64,000 nucleotides of DNA from Raja brachyura (lineage: Eukaryota): NCBI GenBank assembly GCA_963514005.1, contig OY740810.1, positions 19,654,001-19,718,000 of the forward strand, given 5' to 3'. A program made the translations under genes and the position numbers. Below, piece by piece: positions 3,915 through 58,020 of this stretch (position 1 is the first letter of the stretch; each line of letters opens with the position of its first letter). The notes beneath the pieces were generated by a model, which saw only the letters and a program-made list of their open reading frames with translations, had not been told where the DNA came from and searched no databases.

Positions 3915-4625
3915 TCATAAACATAGAAACATAGAAATTAGGTGCAGGAGTAGGCCATTCGGCCCTTCGAGCCTGCACCGCCATTCAATATGATCATGGC
4001 TGATCATCCAACTCAGTATCCCGTACCTGCCTTCTCTCCATACCCTCTGATCCCCTTAGCCACAAGGGCCACATCTAACTCCCTCTTAAATATAGCCAAT
4101 TAACTGGCCTCAACTACCCTCTGTGGCAGAGAGTTCCAGAGACCCACCACTCTCTGTGTGAAAAAATTCCTTCTCATCTCGGTCCTAAAGGATTTCCCCC
4201 TTATCCTTAAGCTGTGACCCCTTGTCCTGGACCTCCCCAACATCGGGAACAATCTTCCTGCATCTAGCCTGTCCAACCCCTTAAGAATCTTGTAAGTTTC
4301 TATAAGATCCCCTCTCAATCTCCTAAATTCTAGAGAGTATAAACCGAGTCTATGCAGTCTTTGTTCATAAGACAGTCCTGACATCCCAGGAATCAGTCTG
4401 GTGAACCTTCGCTGCACTCCCTCTATGGCAATAATGTCCTTCCTCAGATTTGGAGACCAGAACTGTACGCAATACTCCAGGTGTGGTCTCACCAAGACCC
4501 CATACAACTGAAGTAGAACCTCCATGCTCCTATACTCAAATCCTTTTGCTATGAAAGCTAACATACCATTGGCTTTCTTCACTGCCTGCTGTACCTGCAT
4601 GCCTACTTTCAATGACTGGTGTAGA
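3915..4625 (-). mobile_element. CR1/HER1-type LINE, 5'-truncated 3' end
   Basis: ORF 4100-4681(-) includes QVQQAVKKANGMLAFI..LVRPHLEYCVQFWSP..RRFTRLIPGM..RTRGHSL..FFTQRVVGLWNSLP (CR1 ORF2 C-terminus); (tttctatg)n tail reads catagaaa-catagaaa near 3921. Confidence 0.95.
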
Positions 4626-5079
4626 ATTAATGGACAGATTACCCAATTTCCAAGCAAAAAACAACAAGTCACCAGAGGCAATTTATTTCACTCTGGCACA
4701 AACTCACTGCATGTCAGCTGCTTGTCATCTGAATATTTGCCAAATAGCGCAATGTACTACAGCTGCTTTCCCTTACAATGACCACAAAATAATCAGTGAA
4801 AATTCATAGCATAGATAAAAAAATTGCTTCACACTTTGAAAATTTGTGGATGACATAACTTATGTAAATTGCATAAACAAGTAAACTCACATGCATTTAA
4901 ATATGGTGAATGGAAAAAACTTGTTTATTTCAGATCATCAATAGATGTAAGTAAGGCTTGGACTTAATGCCTACCCTATTCACTGGCCCCCAATTTCAAT
5001 CCATGCTGAATGATTACAAAGAGCTAATTCTGGACTAAATTCCGTTTATGTGACACAAAAATGTAAACGTATATTCATA

Positions 5080-6670: not shown

Positions 6671-8660
6671 GGAAATGAGCATTCACTCAAATGGGATTAT
6701 TAAAAGTCTCTCAGTAGCTAGTGGGAGGTAAAGAAACAGAAATGTTGGCAGATTGTATAAAGATGTGAAACCAACAGGGTTGTCATAGTGGGCGACTTCC
6801 CCAAAATCAACCGGTGCAAAAGGCTTATTTTGGGCAAAAGGCTTATTTGGGGCAGAATTTATTGAGTATATCCAAGAGGGTTTCTTGAAACTGTGTGTGG
6901 ATAGTCCAACTCAAGGAGGGACCATACTGGACCGAGAAATGGGAAATAAGTCTGGCCAGGTGACTGGTGTTTCAGTGGCAGAGCTTTCTGGGAACAGTGA
7001 TCACTACATAGGTTTTAAGATAGTTATGAATTAAGGATAGGTCTGTACATTTCAGGGAAAGTACGAAATTGAGGCAAGGCAGATTACAATATTTGGCATG
7101 AATTAGGGAGAGCAAATTGGAAAAAGCTGTTATCGAGTAATCACATCAGACAAGTAATTTAAAGACCAGCTGATCAGAGTTCTGGAGTGGCATGTTCCAG
7201 TGAGGAAGAGGGATAGCAAGGAAAGGGAACTGTAGGTGATCAGAGAGTTGTAAACTTAGTTGAAAAGGAAGAAGGTTCAGGCATTGAGGAATATAAAACA
7301 AGCACAAAAGAACTCATGCAGGAAATTAGAAGGACCAAAAGGGGCCCTGAAGTGTCATTAGCAAGTCAGATTAAAGTAAATCCTATGGCTTTTTAGTACA
7401 TTAAAAACAGGAGTGTAACTATGGAGAAGGTAGGACCACTTAAGGATAAAAGGAGAACATTTATTCTTGGAGTCAGAGGATGTAGGTGATGCATTAAATG
7501 CGTACTTTGCATATGTATTCGCCAAGAAGGACAAGAAGCATAGTGGATCAGTGTGCTAATATGCAAGGACAGTTTGAGGTCATGATGCACATGGTGTTGG
7601 CCATCTTGAAAGGCTTGAGGGGAGATAAATCTATCCTGGGTTATTGTGAGATGCAAGAGACCTGGGTTATTGTGAGATGCAAGAGAGGAAATTGCAGGGG
7701 CCTTGACAAAGAACTTTGTATCCTCTCAAGCCACAAGTAAAATCCCAGAAGACTGGAGAGTAGCCAATATTGTTCCTTGGTTTCAGAAGGGAAATTGAGA
7801 TAATCCAAGAAATTGTAGGACAGTGAGCTTCATGTCCACGGTAGGGAAGTTATTGGAGATTCTTCAGATAGGATTTACTCCCTTTTGGAAGAAAATTGGA
7901 TAATTAGGGACAGTTAGCTTGGAGCCTTTTTCTGCAGCAGATCAAGGTTCACTAATGATTGAGTCCTTTTTTTCTTTAGGTGACAAAGGTGATTGAGGAA
8001 GGTAGAGCAGTGGATGTTGTCCACGTGTACTTTAGTAAGGATTTGATAAAGTCCCCCATGGTAGGCTGATCCAGAAGATTAATATGCATAGGATCCATGG
8101 TGATTTGGTAGTTTGGATTCAGAATTGACTTGCCAATAGAAGGCCGAGGGCAGTGGTGAAAGGGAGTTATTCTAACTGGAGGTCTTTGACCAGTAGTGTT
8201 CTGCAGGGTTCTTTGTTAGGGCCTCTGTTTGTGAGATATAAATGACTTGGACATTAATATAGATAGGTTGGTTACTAAGTTTGCAGACAATGCCAAAATG
8301 GTGGAGTTGGAGACAGTGATAAAGGCTGTCAAATAATAGAGCAGGATATAGATCAGTTACATATGTAGAAATTAAGTTTAATCGGAGCAAATGTGAAGTG
8401 TTTGCACTTTAGGTGGTCAAATACAAGTGGATAGTATATAATTAATTGTAAGACCCTTGACAGTATTGATGTACAGAGGGATCTTGGGGTCTACGTCAAT
8501 AGCTCCCCGAAAATGGCAACAAATAGATAACGTAGTCAAAGCGGCTTATGGTATGCTAACCTTCATCAGTCAGGGCATTGAACACAAGAGTCAGATTGCA
8601 GTTTTATAGAACTATGGTTAGGCCGCATTTGCAGTCACGGTCACCCCATTGCAGGAAGGA

Positions 8661-9927
8661 CTCGGCTTTCAGGTCGGGCGATGCCCGTGCCTATAGTTCA
8701 TCGAGGGCCATCAAGAACGTTAAACACAGATACAAGCTGCGGATCGAGGAGCACTTCGACAGCAACTCCGACCCCCAACGCACGTGGCATGGCATCCAGG
8801 CCATCACTGACTACAGAGCCACCAACTCCACCCCCACTTCCAGCGACACATCCTTCCTCGAGGAACTCAATCACTTTTATGGCTGCTTTGAAAGGGACAA
8901 CCAAGAGTTGGCCATCAAGGCTGTGATCCCCGATGACCACCAGCCCCTCACACTCAACCCCTACGACATGCACGTGGCACTGAGTAGGATCAATGTACGT
9001 AAGGCTGCCGGCTCTGACGGCATCCCCGGCGCGTCCTCAGGACCTGTGCTGCACAGCTGACAGACGTCTGGACTGACATCTTCAACCTGTCACTTGCCCA
9101 GGCAGTTGTCCCCACGTGCCTTAAAACTACCTCCATCGTGCCAGTGCCAAAACACTCCACTGCGGCGAGCCTCAACAACTTCCGCCCAGTTGCACTCACC
9201 CCTATCAAGTGCTTTGAAAGGCTGGTCATGGCACACCTCAAATGCTGCCTACCTACCACTCTGGACCCCTACCAGTTTGCATACTGCAAGAACAGGAGCA
9301 CGCCATCTCAACAGCACTCCACTCCGCCCCCTCCCACCTCGACAACAGAAACACTTATGTGAGAATGCTGTTCATCGACTACAGCTCAGCATTCAACACC
9401 ATTAACCCCTCTAAACTGATCGCCAAACTCGATGACCTGGGCATCAACGCCTCCCTCTGCAATTGGTTACTGGACTTTCTAACCAACAGACCATAGTCTG
9501 TTAGGTTGGATAACCATTCCTCTTCTATCCTCACCCTGAACACTGGCGTACCCCAGGGCTGCGTGCTGAGCCCCCTCCTCTACTCCCGCTTCACCTACGA
9601 CTGCATACCTATACATGGTACCAACACCATCATCAAGTATGCAGATGACACGACGGTGATTGGCCTCATCAGCGACAACGATGAGTCGGCCTACAGGGAG
9701 GAGGTTCAGCTCCTAACAGCATGGTGTGCCGACAATAACCTGGCCCAGACTATCCAATCACCAGCAAATTGCACGGATACCACTGTATATGTATAGATGT
9801 ATATACTCATACTACTGCGCAATTACTTGTTTATTCGTAAGTTCGCCCTTCGGAGATACCAACTGCATTTCGTTGTCTCTGTATTGTACACTGCACAATG
9901 ACAATTAAAGATTGAATTGAATTGAAA
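8661..9927 (+). mobile_element. Rex1/Babar-clade LINE fragment (frameshifted RT)
   Basis: [70 protein letters not shown] and IKYADDTTVIGLI motifs; (ttgaa)n tail at about 9905-9927. Confidence 0.9.
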
Positions 9928-10208: not shown

Positions 10209-11479
10209 TCCCCATTTCCCTGGTCAATTCTTCCCTTCCCTCCCTCTCCACCCCTTCCCCGGGCACTTTCCCTTGCAACCGCAAGAGATGCTACACTTGT
10301 TGCTTTACCTCCCCCCTCCACTCCATTCAAGGACCCAAGCAGTAATTCCAGGTCAGACAGAGGTTCACCTGCACCTCTTCATAACAAGAGGATTTCAGTA
10401 CAGGAGTAAAGAGGTTCTTCTGCAGTTGTATAGGGCTCTGGTGAGACGACATCTGGAGTATTGTGTAAACTTGGTCTCCTAATTTGAGGAAGGACATCCT
10501 TGTGATTGAGGCAGTGCAGCGTAGGTTCACGAGATTGATCCCTGGGATGGCGGGACTGTCTTATGAGGAAAGATTGAAAAGACTAGGCTTGTATTCACTG
10601 GAGTTTAGAAGGATGAGGGGGAATCTTATAGAAACATATAAAATTATAAAAGGACTGGACAAGCTACATGCAGGAAAAATGTTCCCCATGTTGGGTGAGA
10701 CCAGAACCAGGGGCCACAGTCTTAGAATAAAAGGGAGGTCATTTAAGACTGAGCTGAGAAAAAACTTTTTTACCAATTTATGGAATTCCCTGCCACAGAG
10801 GGAAGTGGAGGCCAAATCACTGGATGGATTTAAGAGAGAGTTCGATAGAGCTCTAGGGGCTAGTGGAGTCAAGGGACATGGGGACAAGGCTGGCACAGGT
10901 TATTGATAGCGGACGATCAGCCATGATCATATTAAATGGCGGAGCTGGCTCGAAGGGCAGAATGGCCTCCTCCTGCACCTATTTTCTATGTTTCCTCCAA
11001 CCTCATGTATTGCATCCGCTGCTCTAGATGCCAGCTGATCTATATCGGTGAGACCAAGCGGAGGCTTGGCAATCGTTTCGCTGAACACCTCCGCTCGGTC
11101 TGCATTAACCAACCCGACCTCCCGGTGGCTCAGCACTTCAACTCCCCCTCCCATTCCGTATCCGACCTCTCTGTCCTGGGCCTCCTCCACGGCCAGAGTG
11201 AGCAACACCGCAAATTGGAGGAACAGCACCTCATATTCCGCTTGGGGAGTCTGCATCCTCTTGGCATGAACATCGAATTCTCTCAATTTTGTTAACCCTT
11301 GTTGTCTCCTCCCCTTCCCACCTCTCCCTCAGCCCTCGGGCTCCTCCTCCTCCTTCTCCTTTCTTCCCCCCGCCTCCCCCCACCAATCTGAAGAAGGGTT
11401 TTGGCTCGAAACGTTGCCTATCTCCTTCGCTCCATAGATGCTGCTGCACCCGCTGAGTTTCTCCAGCATTTTGTGTACC
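10209..11479 (+). mobile_element. Penelope-like element 3' part with GIY-YIG endonuclease and terminal repeat
   Basis: PGTFPCNRKRCYTC..FTCTS joined across an insertion to SNLMYCIRCSRCQLIYIGETKRRLGNRFAEHLRSV..PVAQHFN..EQHLIFRLGSLHPLGMN; flanked by a 12-bp TSD ctggaatg(c/t)aat at 10197-10208 and 11480-11491. Confidence 0.9.
10377..10991 (+). mobile_element. Younger CR1 3' fragment inserted in the Penelope element
   Basis: ORFs 10147-10482 and 10484-10906 (FITRGFQYRSKEVLLQLYRALVRRHLEYC..RRFTRLIPGM..RTRGHSL); ends in ttttctatgt and splits the Penelope reading at FTCTS|SNLMY. Confidence 0.92.
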
Positions 11480-13578
11480 CTGGAATGTAATGTTGGGTTT
11501 GGTGGTGGAAGCAGCTACAATAATTGCATTTAAGAGGATTGTAGATGGCCACATGGATAGACAGGGAATGGAGGGATAAAGAGCACATGTAGGCAGAGGA
11601 AATTTGTTTAACTTGGGATCATGTTCGGCACAGACATTGTGGGCCGAAAGGCCTGTTCCGTGTTCTCGAATTTTCATAAATACAGCCCCAACACAAAGGA
11701 CAAGGGGAGGTTGAGAACGCATCCAACAGATTCCTCATCAAAGTGCACACTACCTGAAGTAAACTGCCATTCATTCAGCGAAGCTGCATATATAGATGGG
11801 AGTGCAATCGTTCAAGAAAACAGCTCCTCCACATTTTCTTATGAGCATGTAGGGGGTAATAAATGACACCTGCTGACAACGCTCATAAAAGTAGAGAGTT
11901 TACTATGGAGGAGCAAAGTACTTCAATGAAAAAAAGAGGCTATAAACGGATACGAGAACAGAGTGACTGCTAAATCTGTGTACAGAAATCTTTTAATGTG
12001 GCAGGGCAGGTCAAGAAAGCACATATGTTGAATATGTGGAGGATAGCAAATAACAATGCAAATGCCTGGGAAAGAGTTCCCAAAATGTTACCAGAATCAA
12101 TAAGTGACTGAAAAAATAAAGATTGTTTTTTGCATAAGAGGAAGCCAAGCAGTGAAAGATCTCAAAATCACAAAGGGTCTTAATAATGTAAATACCAATA
12201 AGCCTATCTAATGGCAAACGGGTCAAGGAACAGAAGGTACAGGTGTATAGATTGATTACAGGGATCCAGTGATGACAGAAAGAAAATGGAGTCAGTGATG
12301 CAGCACAGAAAAAGGCTCCAGACTCCATCTGCACAAACCATCAAGCGCCTATTTCCACAATACACATTATTCATTTCATCCCTAACCATCTTCTCTCCAC
12401 GTTCCACATCCCCCCCCCCCCCCCCCAAGATTCTAACACTCACCTGGACAATAGGGGAAATTTACAGTAGCCAATTAACCTCCCCACCAGCATGCCTTTG
12501 GGATGCGAGATAAAACCAGGACACCCAAAGAAAACACATGCAGTCACAGGGAGAACATGTAAACTCCACACAGGGAAAAATCCAGAGATCAGCATTGAAT
12601 TTTGTGACGAGACAGCAGCTCAACTTACCACTGTGGCATCCCAAACCCTTTTCATGCCAAGAGTAATTATGAACGAGCAACTTAGACAATTTAGAGATAT
12701 AGATAAGCAGATTCAGTTTTGACCAAACATGTAGTTGAAGGTAAAAGCATCACAGGGTTTCAGGGAAAGATATATGGATTGGGTGCAGCCAAGTAGCTCT
12801 TACAAAAGCCAGTTTACGGTCGTCGGTGTTATAAAATATCACCTTGTTCACGTGGGCATATAAACCCAATACAAAAATCACTCTTCAGACCTGTTTTCTG
12901 CGTTGCACAATGCTACACTATTTACACATGATATAGTTAGAGCACATAAGAACACATGCAGGTAAATATGCTTTACGGCTAACGGTATAGTACAAGATTA
13001 GTAAATTAGTAAATCCCAGTTTAAGGACAATTGTGGATTGAAAACTCCCGTCAACTGCTCATAGGTTTGAGATGCAGCCAAATTATTTGGAGCGAGGCCT
13101 TTCCTCCATTGATCTTTCAGTTTAAAAAAGGAAGATACTGTCGATGCTGATAATTTATGAAAGATGTATGATATCGCCTGGACCCGAGAGTTCCTTCAAA
13201 ACCCACCAGACAATGGTACGGGTGAACACTCGGTGCGGACAGCTGGCTCCCTCGGGCTGTTCTGTGGAGAATTGCCCCCGCACCCTCCTCCACCTTCACA
13301 TAGGGTACCGGTGATGAGAGGGAAAGACAGCGGAACGGCCCGGTCGGGTCCCGGCCATCGACCAGTTGCTGGGATCAGGTTTCCATCACCACAGAACACC
13401 TTCCACTGCCCGTGTCCGGCCCAGCGCGGTCGCTTCGGCCGCCCGGGGTCCCGGAGCCGCAGGACAATTACGATGCGCAGGTTCCGGCCCCGGGGTCTAC
13501 GCGCCTGCGGCCCACAGGCTCGGCCCGACGTCATGCCTTAGCAGCACCGGGGTTAAGTGTTTACCGCCGCCCACTCAC

Positions 13579-13740
13579 CTTCTACAGGGCCCTATAATAA
13601 AGCCGGCTCCTGTCCCCAACTTCATTCAAACTCACTGCGGGACACGATGCCGGGAACCCGCACTGCCGCAACCTCGGCCTTTCATCCCGCGACAAGGCAG
13701 CCGCGGCCGCAGGATCATCCTTAACCCGCAGATAGGCGGC
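13579..13740 (-). other. Putative non-coding first exon (5' end approximate)
   Basis: Minus-strand donor GAAG|GTGAGTGG with the intron starting at 13578, inside the CpG island; no downstream coding exons recognised in the window. Confidence 0.5.
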
Positions 13741-13745
13741 GCCTT

Positions 13746-13920
13746 CCTACAGCGCCATCAGCGGTTCGGAGTCGCCTGAAGCGCCCTCGGCGGTTTGGAG
13801 TCGCCTGCAGCGCCCTCGGCGGCTCGGAGTACCTACAGCGACTTCAGCGGTTCGGAGTTTCTCCAGCTTTTTGTGTAACCCTCAGCGGTTCGGAGTCGCC
13901 TGCAGCGCCCCCGGCGGCTT
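13746..13920. repeat. 29-bp GC-rich minisatellite (about 5.5 units)
   Basis: Units cctrcagcgccctcggcggttcggagtcg start at 13746, 13775, 13804, 13832 and 13899. Confidence 0.9.
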
Positions 13921-16450: not shown

Positions 16451-18099
16451 ACAACCTAGCTCGCTGGAACAGAGAAGCAGCAGCTTAACCAGCTGCGCCA
16501 CTGTGGCTTTGATCTGTATCATCCTTGTTACCTCAACCTAACAAAATACTATTCCTGAATATTCCTGTTCACAAACCCGCAGCTTCTGAAAGAGAATTAC
16601 AATTTTTTTTTGACGGGAGAAAATATTTCCTGTTTGTATTCCTTAATTTAGGGCAATGGAATTGGCGCAACATAGATGCAGTAGGGTCGATCCTGACTAG
16701 GGGTGCTGTCTGTACCTAGTTTATACGATATCCCCGTTAACGCATGGGTGCTCCGGTTTCCTCCCACATGCCAAAGACTTCCTGGTGTGTAGTTAGAATT
16801 TGTCCCGAGAGTGTAGGACAGTTTTCGTGTACGGGATCGCGGACATGCGCGGACATCAAAGGTGGAGTAACTCGGCAGATCACACGGCATACATAGCATC
16901 TCAGGAGAAAAGGAATAGGTCGAAATTCTCATATCGCTAAGCTATATGGGAACTTATGTGATCGGAATACTACTCAAATTGATCATGTGTAGAGTTACTA
17001 AATTGAGCGCATATGAAGGAACTGCAGATGCTGGTTTAAACAGAAGATGGACACAAAATGCTGGAGTAACTCAGCATCTCTGGAGAGAAAGAATGAGTAA
17101 CGTTTCGGGTCGAGACCCTTCTTCAGACTCTCTGGGCAGCGTTTCGTGTCGAGACCTTTAATGAGTGTAAGTGGGATTAAATTTAGTGACTTGCTTGGTA
17201 TGGTAATTACAGCTGGACAGGCTCTCAACCTTAACAATGAGGAGGTCAACATCATCATTAAGTTTAATAGCCACACTTAGAACTCAGGGAACACTTAAAA
17301 GCTTATTAACAAATTGGTTCTAGCACACTAGAAAAAACGCCCATTTTCTGTGACTCAAGTGCAGCAGTGTGAATTGAAGCAGAGAGACTTTTTTCCTCTG
17401 GCTGGAGCGACTAAAACGAATGAGTATTCATTTCAAGGGGTCGGCCATTTAGGACAGAGATGAAGTATAATTCTTCACTGGGATGAATTGAGAATATTTA
17501 TAATTTCCAACCCCAAGGGGCTGTGAGTGTTCAATTGATTACTGTTCAAGACTTGAGAGTGATAGATTTAAAAAAAAAGGGATGTGGGAATCAGGATGAT
17601 CAGAGTAGAGCCAGATATGATTTTATTCAGTCTTTGGGTAGGCTTGAGAAACCACTTGGCTTACACACAGAGTGAAGCCAGTGCATCGGCTGTGCCTGTG
17701 AGCCACTTTGTAGTTGGATTCTGACACTGTAACCAAAGTTAGTCCAAGGCAAAGCTCATTACAACTAGGCAAAAATTGAGAGATTAAAATAAACTCCCCA
17801 CACAAATCTTTGGACCTTAAGATCAGTCATTACTATCCCATAAAATAACTACAGGCTTTGTTGACTTTTTGCTCTGACTGGAATAATTACAGCAGGTGAA
17901 TTCCCTTGTGTCTGAACTTTTTGCATTTTGTTTTCACAGAAAGTGAAACTTCCCCACCAATCTTAACTGTATGGAACCCCAATAGAGTGGGCTTAAAACA
18001 ATAATGATTTTGGAAACTGGGGAGAGGCTATGGATGTCTAAACCTTTGTCCAGCAGCTTCTGTGGTCAGAAACATTTATATGGATCTCTAATGTAGGAA

Positions 18100-19340: not shown

Positions 19341-19498
19341 TTGTTTAAGTAGGAACTGCAGATGCTGGAAAATCGAAGGTAGACAAAAGTGCTGGAGAAA
19401 CTCAGAGGGTGCAGCAGCATCTGTGGAGCGAAGGAAATATTTCCTTCGCTCCATAGACGCTGCTGCACCCGCTGAGTTTCTCCAGCACTTTTGTCTAC
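19341..19498. mobile_element. Palindromic Penelope-derived short insertion inside a degraded minus-strand CR1
   Basis: Inverted arms of about 60 bp centred on ggaaat|atttcc (19433-19444); 15-bp TSD cttga(t/c)atatacttt at 19326-19340 and 19499-19513. Confidence 0.85.
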
Positions 19499-20924
19499 CT
19501 TGACATATACTTTGCCTGTGAGGATCTTGTACATTCCAATTCATTCTTTTAAATTTTTGATATTGTTCTATTTTCTTTAGCTCCGTGAGATGATTCAAAC
19601 TTGGAGATAGAGGAAGTTCACTCCAGCTTTGGAAGTGAGAACATTGGGAGAGGGATAGAACAGACGGGATCAAGAGTTGTTTACATTGATGGAAAGAGTG
19701 ATGACAGCTGGATTGAAGAGGATATTGAAAAGAATCCGTCAATAATATCAGCTAACGTGAAAACTGAGCAGAGAAGTTGGGTGTCAGAGGTTTTGTAGAA
19801 ACACGTTTGAGGGAGAATGAGGGACGACAGGAGTGAGACTAGAGAAAGATGCATGTTCAAGGCTGGGATAGGTAAAGTCCAATCCAATGGGTTAGGAAGA
19901 AGAGGTACTATCAGAAACCATTTCATCTCAATCAGAATGACAATGTAAGGTCACAATCTGCTTGCTTTTATGGTGGAGGTACAGGTACAAGATTTTGGGA
20001 AGAGAGATTTAAGCAGAAACTGTGCAGAAGAATTTTTTTTTTAAAAAACAGGTTTACCATCACATTCCAAAGTGAGCATGAAACAACAGTGGAAGGGAGA
20101 CTTGGACCTATTGTGTTCTACGTGGCCCGTCCAGCTCTGGCAGTACGCGGCTCAACCTCATAGTTTACACAAAATATCTAGTCTAACTCCCTCACACTTA
20201 AATGATCAGGGTTGTGGATTGTGTCCAGGGGAATGATAAGTGTAAAAGAGTAATAATTTTGGTGTATTTGATGGCCCCTGATACCCAAAGATCTTTAGAA
20301 TTAAGTATTTACAACATCTAATCCATGTTGTTTAAGAGGAAATGCAGGAGTAAATGTGTGACATGTTCCCACAATGGCACTCTCATAATGACCAGATTGT
20401 CTGCTTTTGTAATGTTGATCAAGTATAAATATTGTTCTGTATTTTGGAGAATATCCCTCCCTGGTTTTAATCCAATTTATTGTTTTAGATTACTTATGTC
20501 TACCTGAGAAAATTGAGCAGGCTCCGTTTAGTTTTCCTCTTAAAGGCAGTACCTACAATACCCCCATTGTACTGCACTGAAGCATCAACCTAAATTTGAT
20601 GCTCAACTGCACGAGTTGGTCATGAATTCCTGACCTTTCCACAGAGAGGAGCAAATTGAAGGGTCGAGGCTCTCGGCTCCAGACACTCAAACCGCACTGC
20701 CCCCCCCCCCCCCCAAGTTGCAAAACATACTTGGCTAATAAAGTGAGTATGAGTACGAGTACATAAGGCAGCCCAGTTACTGTTGACAAGTCATAAATCT
20801 TTAATTGTGATATAACAAATGTACTTCAACATAAATTGCACAGTTAATTCCACAAGGCAAGATTTGATCATGTGAATGGAAGAACTAATCTATTATTCAC
20901 AGTTCAGGTTGCTCATGTGATGAT

Positions 20925-21016
20925 CTGCCCTGCGCTGTATGGCAGACTATGACTTGTTGTTAAACTAATAGATAAGAAACAACAAAATCACTAGTCTTCC
21001 AAACAGAAGTGAGCCA
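20925..21016 (-). ncRNA. mir-7: pre-miR-7 hairpin (miR-7 family; flanks resemble the mir-7-3 type)
   Basis: Minus strand 21001->20978 reads UGGAAGACUAGUGAUUUUGUUGUU (exact mature miR-7-5p). An 18-nt loop follows, then star arm CAACAAGUCAUAGUCUGCCAUA at 20959->20938. Basal cugu/acag pairing, CNNC (CAUC) 16-19 nt after the 3p end, basal UG at -15/-14. Confidence 0.98.
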
Positions 21017-22659
21017 TAGATCTCGATCCAACGGGACATAATGAGTAAAATCACTTGCTGCAGAGAAGTCATGTACAAAACACAGAGGGTCACCAGACAA
21101 AGAGCTCAGTCACTCATCATTATTACAGCACAATATCATCTGATTAAAATACTCCTTTCAAGGCTCCACCTTGTTATCACATTCTGGATTTGAAGGATGA
21201 TGATGATGATGAGATGTGTTGTTTGACTGCGACGGAGCCCGATCATGTCACCTCCTCTGTATTGGAGATACAATGCGAGTGTTTTTGGTCTTGCAGCTCA
21301 CAGCCTTGTCCCTGCACTCACAATATGATAGCATTGTGATTTATCTGCTGCTCCTTCTGCAGCATCAATAGCATTTTTTCTATTACATTGATTAATACAT
21401 CAGACCTCTCAAAACAGCTGCCATCCAATTTTGTTGAGGCAAAGTTATTATGAAATGTCTCTTCTGCTTAGATTTATCTTTTCATTCTCTTCTCCGGATA
21501 AAGCAACTGGAAGTGGGCACAGTACCGAGTCACTGACTACAAGCCAGTGGTTTGTTTGATTATAATATCTTGGTTGTGCTTGTAATCACGTTACTGGTGA
21601 GAGTGATCACTGAGCAGAGAGGGAGAAAACCATGGAGCAAATACAGAGAAAATGTACCCTTTGATGCAAACCTGGTTGCAATAGAAAAGTTTTCAAAAGA
21701 TCAGTGTTACTTTCTCTATTGACCATTTCTTCTTGTGCCAAACAACTAGATAGGAGCCCACCTTGTGCCCATCACATTATGTTTACATGCATGCTGCAGA
21801 GTTGTGTCTATGTGCTTGCATATGCTATGTGCAAGTGATTTAATGCCTCGAGTCCCTTTTACAATTTGCAGTTATTTGTAGTTTATGTGTTACAAACAGC
21901 CACATAGATCTATCCTATATTTACCCTAAAGTAGGTGTTCAAGTACATAACTGTGTGTACAGTGCCTATTATCTCATTTTTGCACAATGATTGTGCAAGT
22001 GTGCTTGTTTGTGTACACGTACACATTTCTCAATCTGTGTGCCCCCATGTTCACTAATGTTATTTCTGTGTGTGGATCACTCATGCAGAGGTACATTCAT
22101 GTTAACTCACTTTTACTATTCACTATTTTAATTTGCAATACTCACAATTTGCTCCCTGCTCCCCACTTGTTTAAGTCGAACCATGGATTGGAATTAAGCG
22201 CAGAGCAGTAATAAAATATAGATTCTAACAATGTATGCTATAGAATACATAGAAAGTGACCAAAGTCTAGAGTGTTCAGAACGTTAATGAGGAAGGTTGC
22301 AGTTAAATTGGAGCCATTAGGGCACCTATGTCTTTTCCTGCAGTGAATGGGGGCAAATAACATTCATTTTTCATTAAAATATGATTGGAAAGGTTTGTGA
22401 TTTTATCAGAACTGTGAAGTAAATTACAAATCTTTGGTCATTTATCTTTTTCATAGAAAGAAGCAATATCACTCGACTGGTGAAGCTGTGCTTATGAAAA
22501 TGCAAAAAAAAGTGATACTAGCTAATGACCACAAATGGCCAGGTTCAACTATCAACATAGAATTATTGACAAGTGCAAATTATGTTGTTGAAAATCAAAA
22601 AAACTGTAATATAGGTTATTTTTGTCAGTCACATGTCAAGAATTAAAATGTCAGTCTTT

Positions 22660-27029: not shown

Positions 27030-27853
27030 ATGCATCAGCGAGACCAAACGTAGACTGGCCGATCGTTTCACTGAACACCTTTGCTCAGTCTGCTTGGACC
27101 TACCAGATCTCCCGGTTGCCAAACACTTTCATTCCCCTGGGTTACACAAAAAGCTGGAGAAACTCAGCGGGTGCAGCAGCATCTAAGGAGTGAAGGAGAT
27201 AGGCGACGTTTCGGGTCGAGACCCTTCGAAGAAGGGTCTCGACCCGAAACGTCGCCTATCTCCTTCACTCCTTAGATGCTGCTGCACCCGCTGAGTTTCT
27301 CCAGCTTTTTGTGTAACCCTCGATTCTCCAGCATCTGCAGTTCCTTCTTTAACACTTTCATTCCCCTTCCCATTCCCACACTGACATTTCTATCCTAGGC
27401 CTCCTCTATTGTCAGACTGGCCAAACACAAATTGGAGGAACAGTATCTTATATTTTGCTTGTGCAGCTTACAACCCCGTGGTATGATTATTGATTTCTCT
27501 AACTTTAAGTAACCCCTGCATTCCCTCTCCCTCCTCCACCCAAGTCATACTGGCTTCAAAGTCGTCCTGTTGAGTCTCATTGTCTGTACTCGTTCTCACC
27601 TAATGAACGCTAACAATGGCCCATTTCCTTTATCATTGTTACTTTTTTGCATATCATTCATTCATTGTTCTTTATCTCGCTACATCTCACCTTCTATATC
27701 TCTTGTTTCCCTTTCCCTAGACTTTGTCTGATGAAAGGATCTTGACCCGAATAGTAGTTCATTCCATTTCTCCACAGATGTTCTATGACCCGCTGAGCTA
27801 CTCCAGCTTTGTGTCTATCTTCGGTTTAAACCAGCATCTGCATTTCCTTCCTA
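27030..27853 (+). mobile_element. Degraded Penelope element (GIY-YIG remnant plus terminal repeat) with a nested palindromic insertion at 27139-27350
   Basis: gagaccaaacgtagactggccgatcgtttcactgaacacct parallels the ETKRRLGNRFAEHL coding sequence near 11050; 17-bp TSD aacactttcattcccct at 27122-27138 and 27351-27367. Confidence 0.85.
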
Positions 27854-29800: not shown

Positions 29801-31145
29801 TAATGCTTATATTAATGATCTTGTAATCCAGAAGTGGGAGTTCAAATTGAATTAAACAAATCTGGTAATTATTCTTTGAAAATAAAGTTAGTAGTTTGCA
29901 GGGAGAAGAAGCAGTTCTTAATAATCCAGTCTGACTTTATGGTTTGCACCAGGTTAAACAGACCGTTTGCTTTTAATTGCTCTTGCGATATGAGCAGTCC
30001 CCTGCTTCTCTACTTCAAGATAAATAATCGCAATATCCAAGCCATTTTTCATTGATAGTCACCACTGGGATTCACTGTGGCGAGAGCCTGTTGCTGAGTG
30101 TAACTCTCAGATCTTCATTTACTAGGGCAGTCATTTCCACTCAAATAGAACGAGGCAACAAAATTGCACACTTCATCAGCACTGAAGTTTATGCCTGGTG
30201 GCATGTCTAAGCCAGTGCAAAACATACATACGAATTACCAAATAAGATTTGAACCTACAATCTGTGACCGAATGACTCCGTTCTTACCCCATAGGATGCC
30301 CAAATTAATCTGGTGTTTGCAAAGGGTTTGTGTTTGTGCTCAAATCTTCATGGCACTGCAGATCCCAGCATGCTGGTGCATGGACTAGAAACATCCCTCC
30401 TGTTGTATGTTATACAAATGCAAGAGCATCTGCATTCTTTCTGGCAGGTTTCCTATCTTCCCCATGTGATTATTAACCACGAGTAAAGGTCAGAATCTTT
30501 GAATATTGAAAGAAGACAGGATACATCAAAAGGAGGATCACGGGGCCAGTGACAGTCAACAGACCCCATCAATCAACTTCAAATGTTTCTCTCAAAGACT
30601 ATTAGTGCGACACCAGGTCCGAAAAGTGAAAGCAATTGCATTGAACAGTCACTTACAGGGGTTGGCAACCTGTCTGCTGCCCACATTGAGGAGATCAGCC
30701 AAAACAAAGGATCTCTTGCCCTTGCCAATCATTCACCCACTCTCACAGTTAACTGTCAATTAGCTTAGCGCTGCTAAAACCAGAGATTGACTTGGAATCA
30801 GAACACAGTACATTTACATTCTCCTAGCTAACAATGATCTATTCTACGTTTTCCTTGAACTTCACCTCTTTTGATGTCTCGTTTTCACACACTTTACCCT
30901 TCCTTATCTTTGTGTCTCCCTCTCCCCTGACTCTCAGTCTCGACCTGAAACGTCACCCATTCTTTCTATCCAGAGATGATGCCGGTCCCGCTGAGTTACT
31001 CCAGACCATGTTCGTCGTGTCATGTTCCCCAAACTAACTTGGAAGCCTGATTTCAAATGGCAAACGCCATTCAGGACCCATTTTAAACAGAAGCAGTGCC
31101 GAGTCCACCCATCGCCGACAATGTTGGAATTGAACCATTCTGTAC

Positions 31146-31292
31146 CTTGTCTCCGCATCGTTTCAAAGGTGGTCTCACACCTTCCACCAACCAGCATGCT
31201 GTGTCCAAAGTTTTCCTCCGGCATTGTCAGTAGCGGTGAGAGCGGACATCCTTTGTAAAATGTGTCTTCGCGAATGATCACATCTCTGCAGC
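31146..31292 (-). other. Candidate 147-nt internal exon of the miR-7 host gene
   Basis: Strong acceptor tccctttctttttctcag|GCTGCAG with a long pyrimidine tract, donor CAAG|GTACAG, CpG-containing unique sequence. Confidence 0.5.
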
Positions 31293-31439
31293 CTGAGAAA
31301 AAGAAAGGGATAATAAATGGGGAAGGGAGAACGAGATGGGGGGAGCGTTGGAGAGAACAGGAGAGAGAGAGAGAGAAAGAAAAACAACAGCGAAGCAAAA
31401 TCAACAATGGGGAAATTAGAGGGTGCAGAGGTAGCGGCA

Positions 31440-32400
31440 GTGAAAGAGAAGGCGTAGGACGAGATATTAAATTCCCGCACCATGTCACGGATTACCCTGA
31501 CACGCTGGGTCAGCAGGTAAACTGCCTACGCTGAGACTGACAGGGTTATGACCAGGCAATCATTCACAAAGATTCAAGCCAGTGCCAAACATACCTACGA
31601 AACATCAAATAAATGTCATCTCTGCAGCAACAAGGCAGCGACTGGATTGAGTTTTAACTCCTTGAGATCCGAGCTGCGGAAAATCTGCAATTCAACCAAA
31701 ATATAGCAGGTGTGAAGAACAGGGCGGATCCGTCCAAGTTTAACTCCAAGTCTTGTGCAACCACTAGCGAAATTTGGTGCAAGCAGGTCGTGCGAGGTAG
31801 GGGCACAGTCAATGCAAGCCCGACCCCCACCCTGCCGCGTTTCCAATGATGTGTCCCAATTCGGTTCGCTTTCACGTCGGCAGAGATGGTCCTGTCAATG
31901 TCAGAGGAGGAGCTCTGGGTTGAGACCGAATGAAACTCACGGTTCTTATCAGAAACAGGTTCAGGTCTCCCTTCACACAACCCTCGCTTGCAGTTTCAAG
32001 GGGCCACGCGGGTAGCTTTGAGTATTAGCGCTGCTGTGTTACAGGGGACGTGGCAGTCCAAGTGTACACAGAAGGATCTCACGGAGAGCGTCAGCCTCTC
32101 AGTTGCTCCGGGCTCTGACACTGCCCACAGGCAAGAACTTTCCCTCACTGTGTCCCAGGTGGTAACACAGGGCATCGGGCGCAAGGCACACAGTATTGTG
32201 CCTTCCCCACACCGGCGAGGCTGCGAGGAAACGATGAGCGTTTCCCTCCAAACAACATCTTTCCGCAGAAATCTCCGCAGTGTAAGCCGCGCACCCCATT
32301 CCAGCCCAGCCCGGAGAACGGCACGTCAAGCTCCACTATAGAGCGAGCCCGCCAACAGGCGAGATCAGAATACTACGCGCATTATTTTAGCCAAGATTTA
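31440..32400 (-). promoter_or_regulatory. CpG-rich region; candidate promoter or alternative first exon of the miR-7 host
   Basis: Non-repetitive CpG-rich sequence; minus-strand donor ACC|GTGAGT (intron from 31940); CRE-like TGACGT at about 32323-32328. Confidence 0.5.
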
Positions 32401-35359: not shown

Positions 35360-36490
35360 ATTAGAAACATTGAAAATAGGTGCAGGAGGAGGCCATTTGG
35401 CCCTTCAAGCCAGCGCCACCATTCATTGTGAACATGGCTGATTGTCCCCTATCAATAACCTGTGCCTGCCTTCTCCCCATATCCATTGACCCCACTAGCC
35501 CCTAGAGCTAACACTCTCTTAAATCCATCCAGTGACTTGGCCTCCACTGCCCTCTGTGGCAGGGAATTCCATAAATTCACAATTCTCTGGGTGAAAATGT
35601 TTTTCCTCACCTCAGTCTTAAATTACCTCCCATTTATTCTAAGACTGTGGCCCCTGGTTCTGGACTAGCCCAACATTGGGAACATTTTTCCTGCATCTAG
35701 CTTGTCCAGTCCTTTTATAATTTTATATGTTTCTATAAGATCCCCCCTCATCCTTCTAAACTCCAGTAAATACAAGCCCAGTCTTTTCAATCTTTACTCA
35801 TATGACAGTCCCGCCATCCCAGGGATCAATCTCGTGAACCTATGCTGCACTGCCTCAATCACAAGGATGCCCTTCCTCAAATTAGGAGGCCAAATCTGTA
35901 GACAATACTCCAGATGTGATCTCACCAGAGCCCAATACAAATGCAGAAGAACCTCTTTACTCCTATACTGAAATCCTCTTGTTATGAAGGCCAACATTCT
36001 ATTAGCTTTCTTCATTGCCTGCTGTACCTGCAAGCCAACCTTTAGTGACCGGTGTACAAGGATGCCCAGGTCTCGCTGCACCTCCCCTTTACCTAACCTA
36101 GCCTCATTGAGCTAATAATCTGCCGTGGAGTAGACAAATTGTTAAAGAAGGAACTGCAGATGCTGGAGAATCGAGGGTTACACAAAAAGCTGGAGAAACT
36201 CAGCGGGTGCAGCAGCATCTAAGGAGCGAAGGAGATAGGCGACGTTTCGGGTCGAGACCCTTCTTCAGACCCCCCCTTGTTTTTGCCGCCAAAATGGATA
36301 ACCTCACATTTATCTATATTATACTGCATCTGCCACGCATCTGCCCACTCACTCAACCTGTCCAAGTCACCCTGCAACCTCCTAACATCCTCTTCACAGT
36401 TCACACTGCCACCCAGCTTTGTGTCATCCGCAAACTTGTTAGTGTTGCTCCTAATTCCCTCTTCCAAATCATTAATATCCCTCTTCCAAA
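35360..36490 (-). mobile_element. CR1 LINE 3' part interrupted by a Penelope-derived repeat (about 36140-36270)
   Basis: ORFs 36219-36494(-) INDLEEGIRSNTNKFADDTKLGG..LQGDLDRLSEWADAWQMQYNIDKCEVIHFG and 35794-36081(-) QRDLGILVH..LEYC.. Confidence 0.93.
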
Positions 36491-36727
36491 TCATTAATAT
36501 AATTAATTGTTTAGTAAATTAGGGCTTGTTAAAAAATCCTTGTATATAATCTTCTCCAAGGAGTGGAATGTGTTTTACCCAGGCTGCTTCTTTAGACAAC
36601 ATTTATACCCTCTTCAAGAATATTGTTTTTCACCTCTGCTGCACTGAATTACATACACACATATTTTAGTTTATAAAACAATATTTGTGTGGGTTCTTAA
36701 TGCATCTATTGTGATGAAGAAACTCAC

Positions 36728-36945
36728 CCATTGCTGATCAGTACCATGGTGTTGATGTTCCTGCCACCAGTCATGTCTCCAGTTGTAAAGGTGCTGAATA
36801 AGTTCTTCTCCCCGCTGGATGTGGGCCTGGGGTCGCAGCTGCTCCAGGTCGGAGTCCCGTCGGTCCAGGGTCAGTTCAGAGTCGCCCAGGACATCTCCGG
36901 CCGTGAGCAGCAGTGCAGCTGCCGAGAATGCTTCTCCGCTGGTTC
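36728..36945 (-). other. Candidate first exon of the miR-7 host gene, preceded by a GC box
   Basis: GC- and CpG-rich block; minus-strand GGGGCGGGAC near 36947-36956; donor AATGG|GTGAGTT (intron from 36727); no upstream pyrimidine tract, so a first exon is more likely than an internal one. Confidence 0.55.
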
Positions 36946-38107
36946 AGTCCCGCCCCGTCTCCCACTTGCATCTGCCCCCTCTCTCTCTCTCTCTTTGTTA
37001 CACCCCGCTTTCCCGCTACCTGGCACCCCCGTTCCTCAGATTAAATATTTTTTTACACATAAATTATGAATAAAGATAAGAATTTATACACAGTTTATAC
37101 AGCCAGTGCTTCGTTCGCTTATTCTTTATCACGAATGACCTTTAACAAATCCCATGATTCCTGGCGTTTTTCGGAATACCGAACTTGCATATTGCCACTC
37201 AGTATCTCTTTAATGCGGTTAACCATGAACACTATGGGCCACAGGGCTTTTTTCACTGTTTGCCCAATTGTTAATTGTCATACAAATTGGAGTAACCCTT
37301 TGATGGTTGGGATTGGCATCTTGCCATTTTCAAGATGCAATTTGAATAACAATAACCACCTAGAGTGCCACCTCTCATCTCAGCAGCTTTCTGTTCCACC
37401 TGAAAAAAATAATGTCAGCCCTTTCCCTTCTCTCTTCATCCCGCCAAGTGACAAAGACACATCTGCCTTACCTTTTGAGTTTCTGGAACAAAACGTCCAC
37501 GATTTCAGGCAACAGCTCTTGTCGCCTGACCCAAAGGAAATTGTATTTCCTCAGCCTGGCATTCAGCCAGCACAAAGAAAGCAAACCACACGATTAGCAA
37601 GAGTAGCGACAAGAGGTGATGGTAAAGTGCCGGAAGTACTGAGCAATCAGACAGCAATAGGCGAGAGAGAAAAATAGATGAGCTTTTAAAGAAAGACAGA
37701 CGGTGTTTATCACAGTCATTTACCCACAACATTAACCCTTTCTCTCTCCACAGATGCAGCCTGAGCTTCTGAGTATTTCCAGCAACTGCAGCATTTTGCT
37801 TTGTGGAAGGACAAACAAGTTGTGCAAAATGGTGAACCGTTCATTGATAAGTGTGGAAGAAAAACATTGATATCCTAATATCCCAAAATGCCTTTCAGAT
37901 TAATAGAATCTTGAAGAACCCAAATGTATGTGGCGGCCATTAGCAGCATAGAAAAATCTCAAACAACAGCAAACTAATTGTTCAATTTGATGGTCTGAGG
38001 ATGTATGTGACCAGGACAGAATGTTTCAAAAGGCGCATGATTTCTTATATTTATTGGAAGGGGAACATACAGATAAAGCCATACAGAACCAGGCTTGCCC
38101 ATGCTGC

Positions 38108-38197
38108 CTGAAGAAGGGTCTCGACCCGAAACGTCGCCTATATCCTTCGCTCCTTAGATGCTGCTGCACCTGCTGAGTTTCTCCAGCCTTTTGTGTA
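38108..38197 (+). mobile_element. Short Penelope-derived insertion beginning at the hammerhead-like core
   Basis: ctgaagaagggtctcgacccgaaacgtc..tttgtgta, flanked by cccatg(c/g)tgcc duplications at 38098-38108 and 38198-38208. Confidence 0.85.
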
Positions 38198-39394: not shown

Positions 39395-39782
39395 GTCAGA
39401 AATAGACAATAGGTGTAGGAGTAGGCCATTCGGCCCTACGAGACAGCACCACCATTCACTGTGATCATGGCTGATCATCCCCAAACAGTACCCCATTCTT
39501 GCCTTCTCCGCATATCCCTGACTCTGCTATTTTTAAGAGCCCTATCTAGCTCTTGAAAACATCCAGAGAACTTACCTCCACCACCCTCTGAGGCAGAGAA
39601 TTCCACAGACTTACCACTCACTGTGAGAAAAAGTGTTTCCTCATCTCCATTCTAAATGGCTTACTCCTTATTCTTAAACTGTGGCCCCTGGTTCTGGACT
39701 CCCCCAACATCGGGAACATGTTTCCTGCCTCTAGCATGTCCAAACCTTTAACAATCTTATATGTTTCAATGAGATCCCCTCG
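39395..39782 (-). mobile_element. CR1 3' fragment
   Basis: Parallels 3915-4310 (gtaggccattcggccc, tgatcatggctgatcatcc, ctgtggcccctggttctggac). Confidence 0.88.
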
Positions 39783-42349
39783 CTCAATTCAAACATTTAT
39801 ATTCTCACGTCTCATTACAAATTCCTGCCTAAATTCTCTCAACCACACCTCAACTTCGGGCTGATTGGGCACGCTAACAGAATAAAATGCATCTGTAAAA
39901 ACAATCAGTTCAGACCTGGCACTATGAAAACACATTCTGTTCCTCAAGCCTGGTCCATAATTAATATCCTGGTTGATCTGACTAACGTCAACTCTGCATT
40001 CCAAACTACCTCTGCCAAAATTTTGCCCTTTGCTTATCAATTAATCCATTTACCTCTTCCTCAAAAGTCACATTCTTTAAAAAAAAGTGACTTTTCAAGA
40101 AAAGACCCAGCAGAAGGTCACATGGCAATACTGATGCCAATGCAAGCTTTTCCATCCTATTCCCCTCCAATACTGAGCCGAGAATTTACACAATAACAGT
40201 AACAATAAGTAATGTTGTAACCTGTGAGGACTGACATGACACAATGGTGTTAAAAGGAGAAACACCACTGCTCCTTTCATCGAGTGAATTCATCTCAAAG
40301 TGCTTTACCAAAGAAGAAGGGTCTCGACCTGAAATATCACCCATTCCTTCTCCACAGAGATGCTGCCTGTCCCGCTGGGTTACTCCGGCACTTTGTGTCT
40401 ATTTTAAGTTTTATTGACTGCTCTAACGTGGAAAGTATTTATTGAACTAATCTTCCACAATTTGATAACCAGAAAGTTCTATTTTAAGGATGGCATGAAG
40501 ATAGTTCAATGAGATCTTTACACTCAATCTGAGACAGAGGACCTAAAGCACCTCATGTGGAACAGCTGCGCCAACAGAGCCACAGCTGCGAGAAATAACA
40601 GGCATTTCTATGCTTTATAATGATATGATTATTTTAAGTTGCAGCTGCAAATTTTACCTCTAGAGCACGGATTTCTCGGAAAATAATGGCAGTAAAATAA
40701 ACTGCTGGAGAAACTGAGCAGGCTGAGCAACATCTGTGGGGGGAAAGGGATTATCCATGTTTTAGATCAAAACCCTGCATCAGGATTGGAAAAGCCTGCA
40801 GACAAGTCAATTGGATTTTATCCGCAGGATACTCACTGTTTCAGAAGGTTCAGACTTTCCTCATTACCCTGGATGATCAAAAAAGGTTTTGGGTGCAAAG
40901 GAGAAAAAAGTTATAAGCTAGAAAATGGGCAATTGAACTGTGCACCATACTGATAAATTGTATCTATCCCTCAATGTTTAAAATGTGGTAATGTCCTACG
41001 AGTATAGGTAGCACCAATCCACAAATGTGATTTCACGTCTCCCTGCCTGTGATCTGCTTTTAACACAGAGGCTGTTGCCATGGCTACAATGCACATCTTG
41101 ACCATGCACAAGATTTGGTTAATGCATTAGAGGTCAGACCAGTGAGCACTACCACTCATTCACATCAAAGCAAACCTTAACTGGAATGTTGACGCCTGGT
41201 TAGGTGTCTGATGACTTTCAGGTAAGTCCTCCTTCACTCCAAGGTCCTCCATACCCCACATTGTCTTTTCCTGATCTGGTCTAAAGTAGCTCCCCATGCT
41301 TGACTTGTTCAGTGGAACTGTGGCTCAAGACAGGTTAGAGGTTTAAAGTTTTATGCTAGGGCATGGGGACAAACACAACTGCCATGCCAGCGAATAATAA
41401 GAGTTAAAAGGTCCCACCTTTTTTGTTTAACATTCTTCTCTGATTAACTGGCTGGTTTAACTTGCTTAAGAGATCTTGTGTTTAAAATCCTGTGTTGTGG
41501 TGGTTAGTGTGGCCAAAGGCAGGCAGTGTGTCATATAAATTCAAACCTAGCTTTTTCCCATCACAACCCTGCTCAATGTGTCCAATGTTTTGTTGGCGAA
41601 TGTGATTTTTTTTTGGTGAAAGAATGACCTGGGCTAAATGTTTTTTTTGCACTGAGTCAAAGCTTTCAACTATAGCTGCACAAACAAAAGCACATAAGTG
41701 GACACTTGTTACATTTTAGGTTGTCTTGCTGCAAAACAGATTTAAGGTCAATTTGGGTGAGAAAAACAGCAAAATTATCCTTTAGGGCTCGTTTTTCTCA
41801 CACAAACCTAATAGCAGGTGATTTAAAAACGGGGCATTCCTTGCAATCTATATAAAAATGACTAAACTACTCTCACTGTGCAGGTTTTCAAGTGCCAGGA
41901 CTCAGCATTGATTAATGCTAAGAGTTCCAAATCCAGTTAACAGCACCTTCACGTCTTCTGACAATCAGTGACAATTACAGCAAAGTAGTCTGGCAGTCAG
42001 TTTAGAGATTCAGAAGCATTGCATCTGGTCAGTTGCACATATTGAAGCATTGGTACTGCCAAATGACTGCCACAATCAATGCAACCATTCCTCAACTAGC
42101 ACAGAAAGTAGTTGAAGGTACACTACTGAACAAGGTAGTAAATGTCACAGGGCAATTCAACTTTGGAAAGCTGTTACTAAAGAATGGGTTTCAGTAAACA
42201 AACGGCACAATCTATAGCAAACAAGCTTCCATCAAACGGAAATGCAAATTTATCCTAGCAACCTCAAAATGGTTCAGCTGATGATGGTAAAGAGCAATGA
42301 GACACAAGTGCACAAAAGATTAGCTGAAGGAATAACAGACCTGAAGACA

Positions 42350-57379: not shown

Positions 57380-58020
57380 TGTCGGAAGGAACTGCAGATA
57401 GTTTCGGGTCGAGACACTTCTTCAGACTGACCAGTCTAAAGCAGGGTCTCGATCCGAAATGTCGTCCATTCCTTCTCTCCAGAAATGCTGCCTCACTCGC
57501 TGAGTTACTCCAGCATTTTGTGTCTACTTTCGATTTAAACCAGCATCTGCAGTTTTTTTCTTACACAAAGGAACTGCAGATGCTGGTTTACACCGAAAGT
57601 AGACGGAAAATGCCGGAGTAACTCAGCGGGCGAGGCAGCATCTCCGGAGAGAATGAATAGGTGACGTTTGGTGTCGAGATTGTTCTTCACCGCGGGTCAT
57701 GTAAACCCGACACGAAGGGATGTGGAAAATTGTGGCTTTTAATATAACGGAAGTAGACACAAAATACTGGAGTTACTCAGCGGGACAGGCAGCATTTGTG
57801 GAGAGATGGAATGGGTGACGTTTCGGGTCGAGCCCCTCGTCAGTCTTCCATTTAAACCAGCATCTGCAGTTCTTTCCTCCGCTTTTAATACAACGCCGGA
57901 ATTAGAAATTGTAAACAGTGATACGTAAGAAGGAACTGCGGATGCTAGTTTACACCGAAGATTGACATAAAATGCGAGAGCAAATCAGCAGGACGTTTCG
58001 GGTTGAGACCCTTCTTCAGA
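57380..58020. repeat. Cluster of about 5 Penelope-derived short repeats in alternating orientation
   Basis: Repeated gaaggaactgcagatgctggttta, ggagtaactcagcggg and gacgtttcgggtcgagacc blocks. Confidence 0.85.

Follow-up and report, generated by a model that had tools for sequence, protein, structure and literature searches.

Known mir-7 loci, the skate hairpin, and its processing signals

Four Mir-7 genes, P1, P2, P3, and P4, are placed on paralogons 1-alpha, 2-alpha, 1-beta, and 2-beta, respectively; the comparative data of PMC8789304 score the gnathostome ancestor, coelacanth, and gar as having the full set, and human and elephant shark as lacking P3. The copy carried by hnRNPK is P2 (2-alpha), and its sister is P4 (2-beta) (PMC8789304, PMC11848845 Dataset S1). 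In mammals, miR-7 is described from the brain, neuroendocrine glands, and endocrine pancreas and from independently regulated loci (PMC13125240, PMC13468813). Dataset S1 of PMC11848845, which combines older and newer Mir-7 numbering, assigns elephant shark and catshark three mir-7 loci apiece; in both species one lies in hnrnpk and the other two are intergenic. The annotated shark and chimaera precursors measure 61–66 nt. In gar, three intergenic copies and one intronic copy are recorded (PMC8321539). Because elephant shark, catshark, and gar all carry intergenic copies, a stand-alone mir-7 is the usual case. On the strength of published tables and presumed chromosome homology, P1 is taken here to be human mir-7-2 and P4 to be mir-7-3.

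The window (the whole 64,000-nt stretch of skate DNA that was analyzed) gave a single Rfam match at the gathering score. Positions 20926–21016 of the minus strand align with the mir-7 family (RF00053) over model positions 1–91 of 91, with a score of 76.8 bits and an E value of 7e-15, exceeding the curated threshold of 51.8 bits. No clustered second miRNA was found at the gathering score in the 64-kb window, and no tRNA was found in it. Down to an E value of 1, Rfam gave nine matches, comprising mir-7, its antisense (34.7 bits), and seven in inverted repeat copies at 19.4 and 57.5–57.9 kb. The parts of the hairpin are as follows.

20926..21016, minus strand: mir-7 pri-miRNA hairpin, full Rfam model (RF00053 76.8 bits; z −4.45)
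20938..21001, minus strand: inferred 64-nt pre-miRNA, the putative Drosha product (homology and overhang rule)
20978..21001, minus strand: mature miR-7-5p, 22–24 nt, seed 21000–20994 (medaka identity; 3′ end inferred)
20960..20977, minus strand: terminal loop, 18 nt, A/U-rich (pairing)
20938..20959, minus strand: putative star (3p) arm, 22 nt (pairing; in the register of annotated medaka 3p arms)
21003..21014, minus strand: 5′ strand of the lower stem, pairing with 20927–20938 (fold; the 4 bp nearest the cut are firm, the 4 bp farther out depend on context)

The 5′ end of the pre-miRNA was placed by homology to medaka miR-7-5p and the 3′ end by the 2-nt overhang rule. The initial annotation had claimed an exact mature miR-7-5p and a complementary star arm, and both were borne out: the first 22 nt of the mature arm (21001–20978) are identical to ola-miR-7-5p (22/22, compared by eye with the sequences in the PMC8321539 supplement), and the star arm (20959–20938) pairs with the mature arm to leave 2-nt 3′ overhangs at both ends of the predicted cuts. 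The 18-nt terminal loop exceeds the minimum (at least 8 nt) set for a canonical miRNA hairpin. The skate sequence shares its mature arm, seed, and hairpin with the RF00053 family along the full length; in contrast, the loop has a sequence of its own, and two star-arm bases, at positions 7 and 11, depart from the consensus while remaining paired.

The 91-mer folds into one hairpin at −31.1 kcal/mol (z −4.45), a value equalled by none of 200 shuffles; the z score was −2.79 for the hairpin in its 132-nt context and −4.36 for the 64-nt pre-miRNA alone. When 4262 windows of 91 nt were sampled from the same DNA, 121 folded as stably or more so; folding energy is thus insufficient to single out the hairpin, and the sequence match carries the call. 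Collectively, the full-length Rfam match, the fold, and the 22-nt identity with medaka confirm the miR-7 gene proposed for the minus strand. The locus can be regarded with high confidence as a genuine, intact, and canonical mir-7 gene of a skate or ray, now situated outside coding hnRNPK, and as one of the copies that came from the two vertebrate genome duplications. It is the expected orthologue of known chondrichthyan mir-7 loci, an ordinary gene with the standard mature product. The intergenic copies of elephant shark (Cmi P1 and P4) and cloudy catshark (two) are also chondrichthyan, also lie outside hnRNPK, and have 61–66-nt precursors as here; one intergenic elephant shark/catshark Mir-7 locus is very probably the orthologue of the skate hairpin. 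The plus strand folds as well at 20926–21015 (z −3.87; 34.7 bits), as is expected of such a hairpin, and an antisense product is annotated for the gar Mir-7-P4 locus (PMC11848845 Dataset S1).

Microprocessor motifs are positioned in PMC7174388 with CNNC 16–18 nt past the cut, mGHG at −5, basal UG at −14/−13, and UGU about 22 nt from the cut; according to PMC10954719, most natural pri-miRNAs contain only a subset. In the skate hairpin, three of the four (GHG, apical UGU, and CNNC) are in register, and the basal UG is off by one, at −15/−14 versus the canonical −14/−13. The elements located on the hairpin, including one in the loop, are given below.

20919..20922, minus strand: CNNC (SRSF3-type), +16 to +19 counted from the predicted 3′ cut (chance rate 13%)
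20979..20981, minus strand: apical UGU, precursor positions 21–23 (motif scan)
20933..20935, minus strand: GHG, +3 to +5, an mGHG-like Drosha element (motif scan and pairing)
20969..20964, minus strand: Musashi-type element in the loop (chance 3.3% per 18-mer)

A CNNC motif had been reported earlier on the minus strand; it is present at 20922–20919, just beyond the interval then assigned to the gene. The GHG faces −5 to −7, where a C-G pair and a U/C mismatch are followed by a possible U-G wobble that is unformed in the minimum-energy fold. A basal stem had also been described, and its 4 bp by the cut are firm (pairing probability 0.88–0.96) and lead into a 4x4 internal loop, but its distal 4 bp (−10 to −13), although paired in the 91-nt fold, have a probability of at most 0.05 in a 144-nt context. 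The loop element fits the Musashi-type motif. In human pri-miR-7-1, HuR and MSI2 bind the loop and block processing (PMC5462424); that proteins of this type might control the skate hairpin through its loop is a guess.

In the proposed route to the mature product, RNA polymerase II would start upstream of the hairpin, with candidate sites near 32.4, 37, or 57–63 kb, and copy the minus strand into a host RNA that is non-coding or long. Drosha/DGCR8, aided by the GHG, apical UGU, and CNNC motifs present in the sequence, would cut at 21001 and 20938 to give the 64-nt precursor, and Dicer would then take off the 18-nt loop. Argonaute would be expected to retain the 5p arm, with its initial U and unchanged miR-7 seed; by extension from mammals, this arm would act in neurons, the pituitary, and the endocrine pancreas to repress mRNAs that carry miR-7 sites. 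Because its product is that of the hnRNPK copy, the locus would add dose and separate transcriptional control and not new targets. It is very unlikely that the copy is silent, or recently duplicated, and yields no miRNA. A silent copy would fit the displaced basal UG and the weak distal stem, as well as the lack of a clear promoter beside the hairpin and of an RE1 (REST) site (0 matches to the site pattern at 3 mismatches), but the unchanged mature arm, the star changes that keep pairing, the diverged loop, and the three motifs in register form the pattern of a selected miRNA, and the hairpin is present as a single copy in the window.

Coding content and candidate host transcripts

Unlike mir-7-1 and fish mir-7b (P2), which are intronic in hnRNPK, the skate hairpin has no hnRNPK exons in its window. 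A Pfam scan of all 372 stop-to-stop ORFs of at least 50 aa with <35% masking, together with 8 repeat ORFs, found no KH domain; none was found either in 75 minus-strand ORFs of 22–49 aa at 19–26 kb, which gave one weak unrelated match. The KH-loop pattern was absent from all six frames, and no host-gene domain of any kind was found in these 455 ORFs. Because KH domains are absent from the scanned ORFs and the KH-loop pattern from all six frames, the hairpin is not in hnRNPK, in agreement with the earlier statement that no HNRNPK exons are visible. Placement in the last hnRNPK intron, as in the mir-7-1 type (P2), was rejected (0 KH domains in 380 ORFs of at least 50 aa and the 75 short ORFs).

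Pfam matches with E <0.002 among the 372 and 8 ORFs were reverse-transcriptase and GIY-YIG fragments only. RVT_1 at 9497–9793 was the sole match above the curated cut-off, and the weaker matches, which also belong to mobile elements, were RVT_1 at 9218–9493 and 36222–36518 and GIY-YIG at 10936–11292. No kinesin or exonuclease exon was found by Pfam in the window's ORFs of at least 50 aa, and no named coding neighbor for synteny was found within the 64 kb. The initial annotation had called the window gene-empty, which holds insofar as the scanned ORFs contain only mobile-element domains, but a CpG island at 13.1–13.8 kb bears a strong donor and resembles the opening exon of a neighbor. This island and two candidate host exons are located as follows.

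13101..13800, minus strand: CpG island, probable non-coding first exon of the next downstream gene (GC 0.61, CpG o/e 0.94)
31181..31292, minus strand: candidate host exon, unproven, with a strong acceptor and a moderate donor (splice scores 16.9 and 7.6)
36728..37040, minus strand: candidate host first exon, unproven, CpG-rich and GC-box-bearing, ending at a donor-like site (composition)

On the splice matrix used, a rough approximation, the donor of the CpG island at 13578 (minus strand) scored 12.0. The island at 13101–13800 is probably the first exon of the neighbor, with the next exon >13.5 kb away; it gave no Pfam or PDB match, and a PDB search of 13585–13746 returned 0 matches. Upstream of the hairpin, exon-like pieces without a protein homologue occur at 21322–21609, 31181–31292, 36728–37040, and near 37472, and CpG-rich stretches occur at 30.8–32.6, 36.8–37.3, and 56.9–63.6 kb. 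The frame at 36728–36943 had 0 matches among 1.84 billion representatives, and its PDB matches were only chance SH3-like ones (best E 0.52). Frames 36727–36870 and 31156–31290 gave no candidates among longer proteins, which is weak evidence, and PDB searches of 30937–31491, 36727–36870, and 31178–31525 gave 0 matches. Inspected by eye, the minus strand of 36728–36943 has three-base periodicity, with G or C at 37 of 48 third positions in one frame, and an apparent frame switch at a G run. This segment is possibly a decayed coding exon or an element.

Of 56 blocks of 1 kb, 43 have a G+T-rich minus strand, and the GC skew of this strand is strongest at 37.7–57 kb (p 3.8e-9; the blocks lack independence, and skew may also arise from replication). 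Strand skew is weak at 21–31 kb and nil at 13.9–20.9 kb. Donor-like sites numbered 47 on the minus strand versus 23 on the plus strand at the loosest setting (p 0.006), 18 versus 6 at the next, and 8 versus 3 at the strictest (p 0.23). Signals of this kind give no more than a hint of long minus-strand transcription. A host transcript of the hairpin's own is plausible. At 56901–63600 there is a broad domain that is CpG-rich yet A+T-rich (o/e 0.7–1.0), with a GC box at 62877; judged by its composition, it may be the unmethylated promoter region of a gene located at the right end of the window or past it. It is possible, although doubtful, that the hairpin is not stand-alone but intronic in a long minus-strand transcript that begins in this CpG-rich domain at 57–64 kb and is either non-coding or coding outside the window, an arrangement that would fit any paralogue. 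The strongest minus skew (37.7–57 kb), the unmasked state of the CpG-rich sequence at 56.9–63.6 kb, its GC box, and minus-strand donors at 62802 and 62282 are consistent with such a transcript. However, the skew fades near the hairpin and may stem from replication, and the closer CpG-rich stretches at 30.8–32.6 and 36.8–37.3 kb could themselves be promoters. Two palindromes resembling the RFX X-box lie in unique sequence at 1144–1157 and 41074–41087.

Paralogue identity

Two human genes offer partial parallels. Human mir-7-3 (P4 type) lies outside hnRNPK in the non-coding host MIR7-3HG (PMC13125240), and exon-like pieces with no coding homologue are found upstream of the skate hairpin; its precursor is listed as 61 nt (PMC11848845) versus 64 nt in skate. 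Human mir-7-2 (P1 type) is described as intergenic (PMC13125240) with a same-strand gene close downstream, as is probable here, but the flanks of its medaka orthologue, 7a-1, match the skate hairpin poorly. Sequence comparison was made by eye with four medaka hairpins only (7bb, 7a-1, 7a-3, and 7a-4; PMC8321539). The hnRNPK copy 7bb (mir-7-1/mir-7b type, P2) was the closest, with 29 of 35 positions in common across the lower stem, star arm, and 3′ flank; 7a-4 and 7a-3 shared 26 and 25, and 7a-1 shared 20 of the 27 given. The Musashi-type element in the loop is a further likeness to this type. In the 22-nt star arm, differences from the window numbered three for 7bb, four each for 7a-1 and 7a-4, and six for 7a-3. 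The five bases before the 5′ cut agreed at four positions in 7bb, three in 7a-3, and two in 7a-4 (one of the two given in 7a-1), and the eight bases after the 3′ cut agreed at six positions in each of 7bb, 7a-3, and 7a-4 (one of the three given in 7a-1). The first 9 bases of the star arm are common to all three non-hnRNPK medaka hairpins, and the first 10 to 7a-1 and 7a-4.

The 3′ arm and flank had been read in the initial annotation as a mark of the mir-7-3 type. These features leave the assignment unproven: the 3′ flank, which includes the Drosha GHG, is near the Rfam family consensus, and the same bases occur in several medaka paralogues, so they do not separate the paralogues. The annotation was right to place a mir-7 gene outside hnRNPK but overlooked the fourth gnathostome paralogue (PMC8789304) among the candidates.

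The most likely identity is nonetheless the mir-7-3 type (P4, 2-beta), an assignment about as likely as not. This type is marked by synteny with a block on human chr19, chicken chr28, and gar LG19, for which the 64 kb yielded no coding neighbor to compare. Since P4 is the sister of P2, a non-hnRNPK look-alike of the hnRNPK copy is most simply P4, and two observations point indirectly in this direction, the best likeness being to 7bb and the flanks of 7a-1, the copy of mir-7-2 type, matching poorly. Bird and mammal mir-7-3 hairpins may also resemble the one in the window, as the initial annotation proposed. Against the mir-7-3 type, likeness to the slowest-evolving copy may simply be the ancestral state, and both medaka mir-7-3-type candidates match the window less well than 7bb does. 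FEM1A is a single-exon ankyrin gene; with a FEM1A-like neighbor, an ORF of this sort would be expected past the downstream CpG island, and none lies there.

Gene layout bears on the mir-7-2 type (P1, 1-alpha; the human chr15 copy), whose host RNA can run into the next same-strand gene and which is a tentative candidate here. The human chr15 copy lies within the same-strand AEN model, and gar P1 lies within a same-strand kif7 model that starts ~23 kb upstream, as annotated in PMC11848845. The skate layout is similar: exon-like pieces lie 10–16 kb upstream, and 7 kb downstream, on the same strand, there is the probable first exon in its CpG island. No kinesin or exonuclease exon appeared, however, in the scanned ORFs of the window. 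The paralogue is retained in both chondrichthyans. Precursor lengths in the chondrichthyan copies point both ways: catshark P2 (older numbering, chr15 type) has 63 nt versus 64 here and the other intergenic catshark copy has 66 nt, which favors the mir-7-2 type, whereas in elephant shark the trend is in the opposite direction, with 61 nt for P1 and 63 nt for P4 (PMC11848845). Within the hairpin, the medaka orthologue 7a-1 argues against the mir-7-2 type through its 3′ flank (1/3), 5′ flank (1/2), and star arm (4/22 differences).

It is unlikely that the locus represents P3 (1-beta), the fourth paralogue, which coelacanth and gar have and human and elephant shark are scored as lacking, and that this skate has retained it. 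Four copies in the gnathostome ancestor and the presence of P3 in coelacanth and gar (PMC8789304) would allow for it, but both annotated chondrichthyans are listed with three loci only (PMC8789304, PMC11848845). At the sequence level, the first 11 star bases are shared with 7a-4, a longer run than with any other of the four medaka hairpins, as are 6/8 flank bases, but 7a-4 matches poorly over the remaining star bases and in the 5′ lower stem (2/5). Medaka 7a-4 is itself presumed, from chromosome homology, to be the P3 copy. Rather more improbable still is that P3 survives in skates under a spliced non-coding host of 15–40 kb, with the pieces at 31.2, 36.7, and 37.5 kb as relics of a decayed hnRNPK ohnologue; if true, a coding host would have turned into a microRNA host RNA, and P3 would have been lost independently among cartilaginous fish. 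An identity other than the mir-7-3, mir-7-2, or fourth type is scarcely to be expected.

Every sampled jawed vertebrate carries three or four mir-7 loci, and hnRNPK hosts only a minority of these; the significance of the skate gene is mainly one of annotation, and greater importance would follow only if the hairpin were the fourth paralogue. The locus is of use in annotating batoid microRNAs and in tracing the copies that were retained after the duplications. No literature on it was found for elasmobranchs or cartilaginous fish in a search that had most subscription journals outside its reach. The star-arm 17-mer was in the main text of no paper found, no paper found joined Leucoraja, miR-7, and microRNA, and PMC3789328 contains no miR-7. 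The miR-7 site of Cyrano is reported to be absent in sharks (PMC13125240), and the miR-7 loci of skates could therefore be informative on how miR-7 levels are set without that decay route.

Repeats and mobile elements

The initial annotation had also called the window repeat-rich. Self-BLAST masked 15.5% of it, and the fraction rose to 23.5% with hand-added element fragments (48,957 of 64,000 bases unmasked). Fragments of LINE reverse transcriptases, truncated and of two or more kinds, lie at 4103–4687, 8560–9900, 10469–10903, 35508–36111, and 39542–39841. The best named relatives of the LINE ORF at 4103–4687 are from Leucoraja erinacea (90%), Mobula hypostoma (85%), Hypanus sabinus (74%), and Chiloscyllium (70%), which points to a skate or ray, and most probably a skate, as the source of the DNA. 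The most frequent repeat contains a minimal hammerhead-ribozyme core, with the core bases, a short stem II, and almost no helix III. Eleven copies within 3 mismatches were found between 2416 and 58019, versus 0 in 100 shuffles, and seven have the full core pattern; Rfam reported none of the copies. Examples found by pattern match are the following.

36244..36268, minus strand: hammerhead core
17102..17126, minus strand: hammerhead core
38108..38132, plus strand: hammerhead core

The copy at 36225–36285 folds with stems I and II, no better than shuffles do. Minimal hammerheads of this sort are carried by Penelope-like elements (PMC6155905), and the repeat fits such elements as judged from the sequence; a GIY-YIG fragment lies at 10936–11292. 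Two 202-nt inverted arms at 54034–54235 and 55589–55790 are 100% identical, 1353 nt apart, and include non-repeat sequence; they represent either a very recent inversion/duplication or an assembly artefact. Head-to-head repeats form long, near-perfect hairpins at 27139–27319, 19397–19481, 57447–57679, and about 60400–60490, with energies down to −86.6 kcal/mol per 91 nt, and those at 19.4 and 57.5 kb yield the spurious sub-threshold Rfam miRNA matches.
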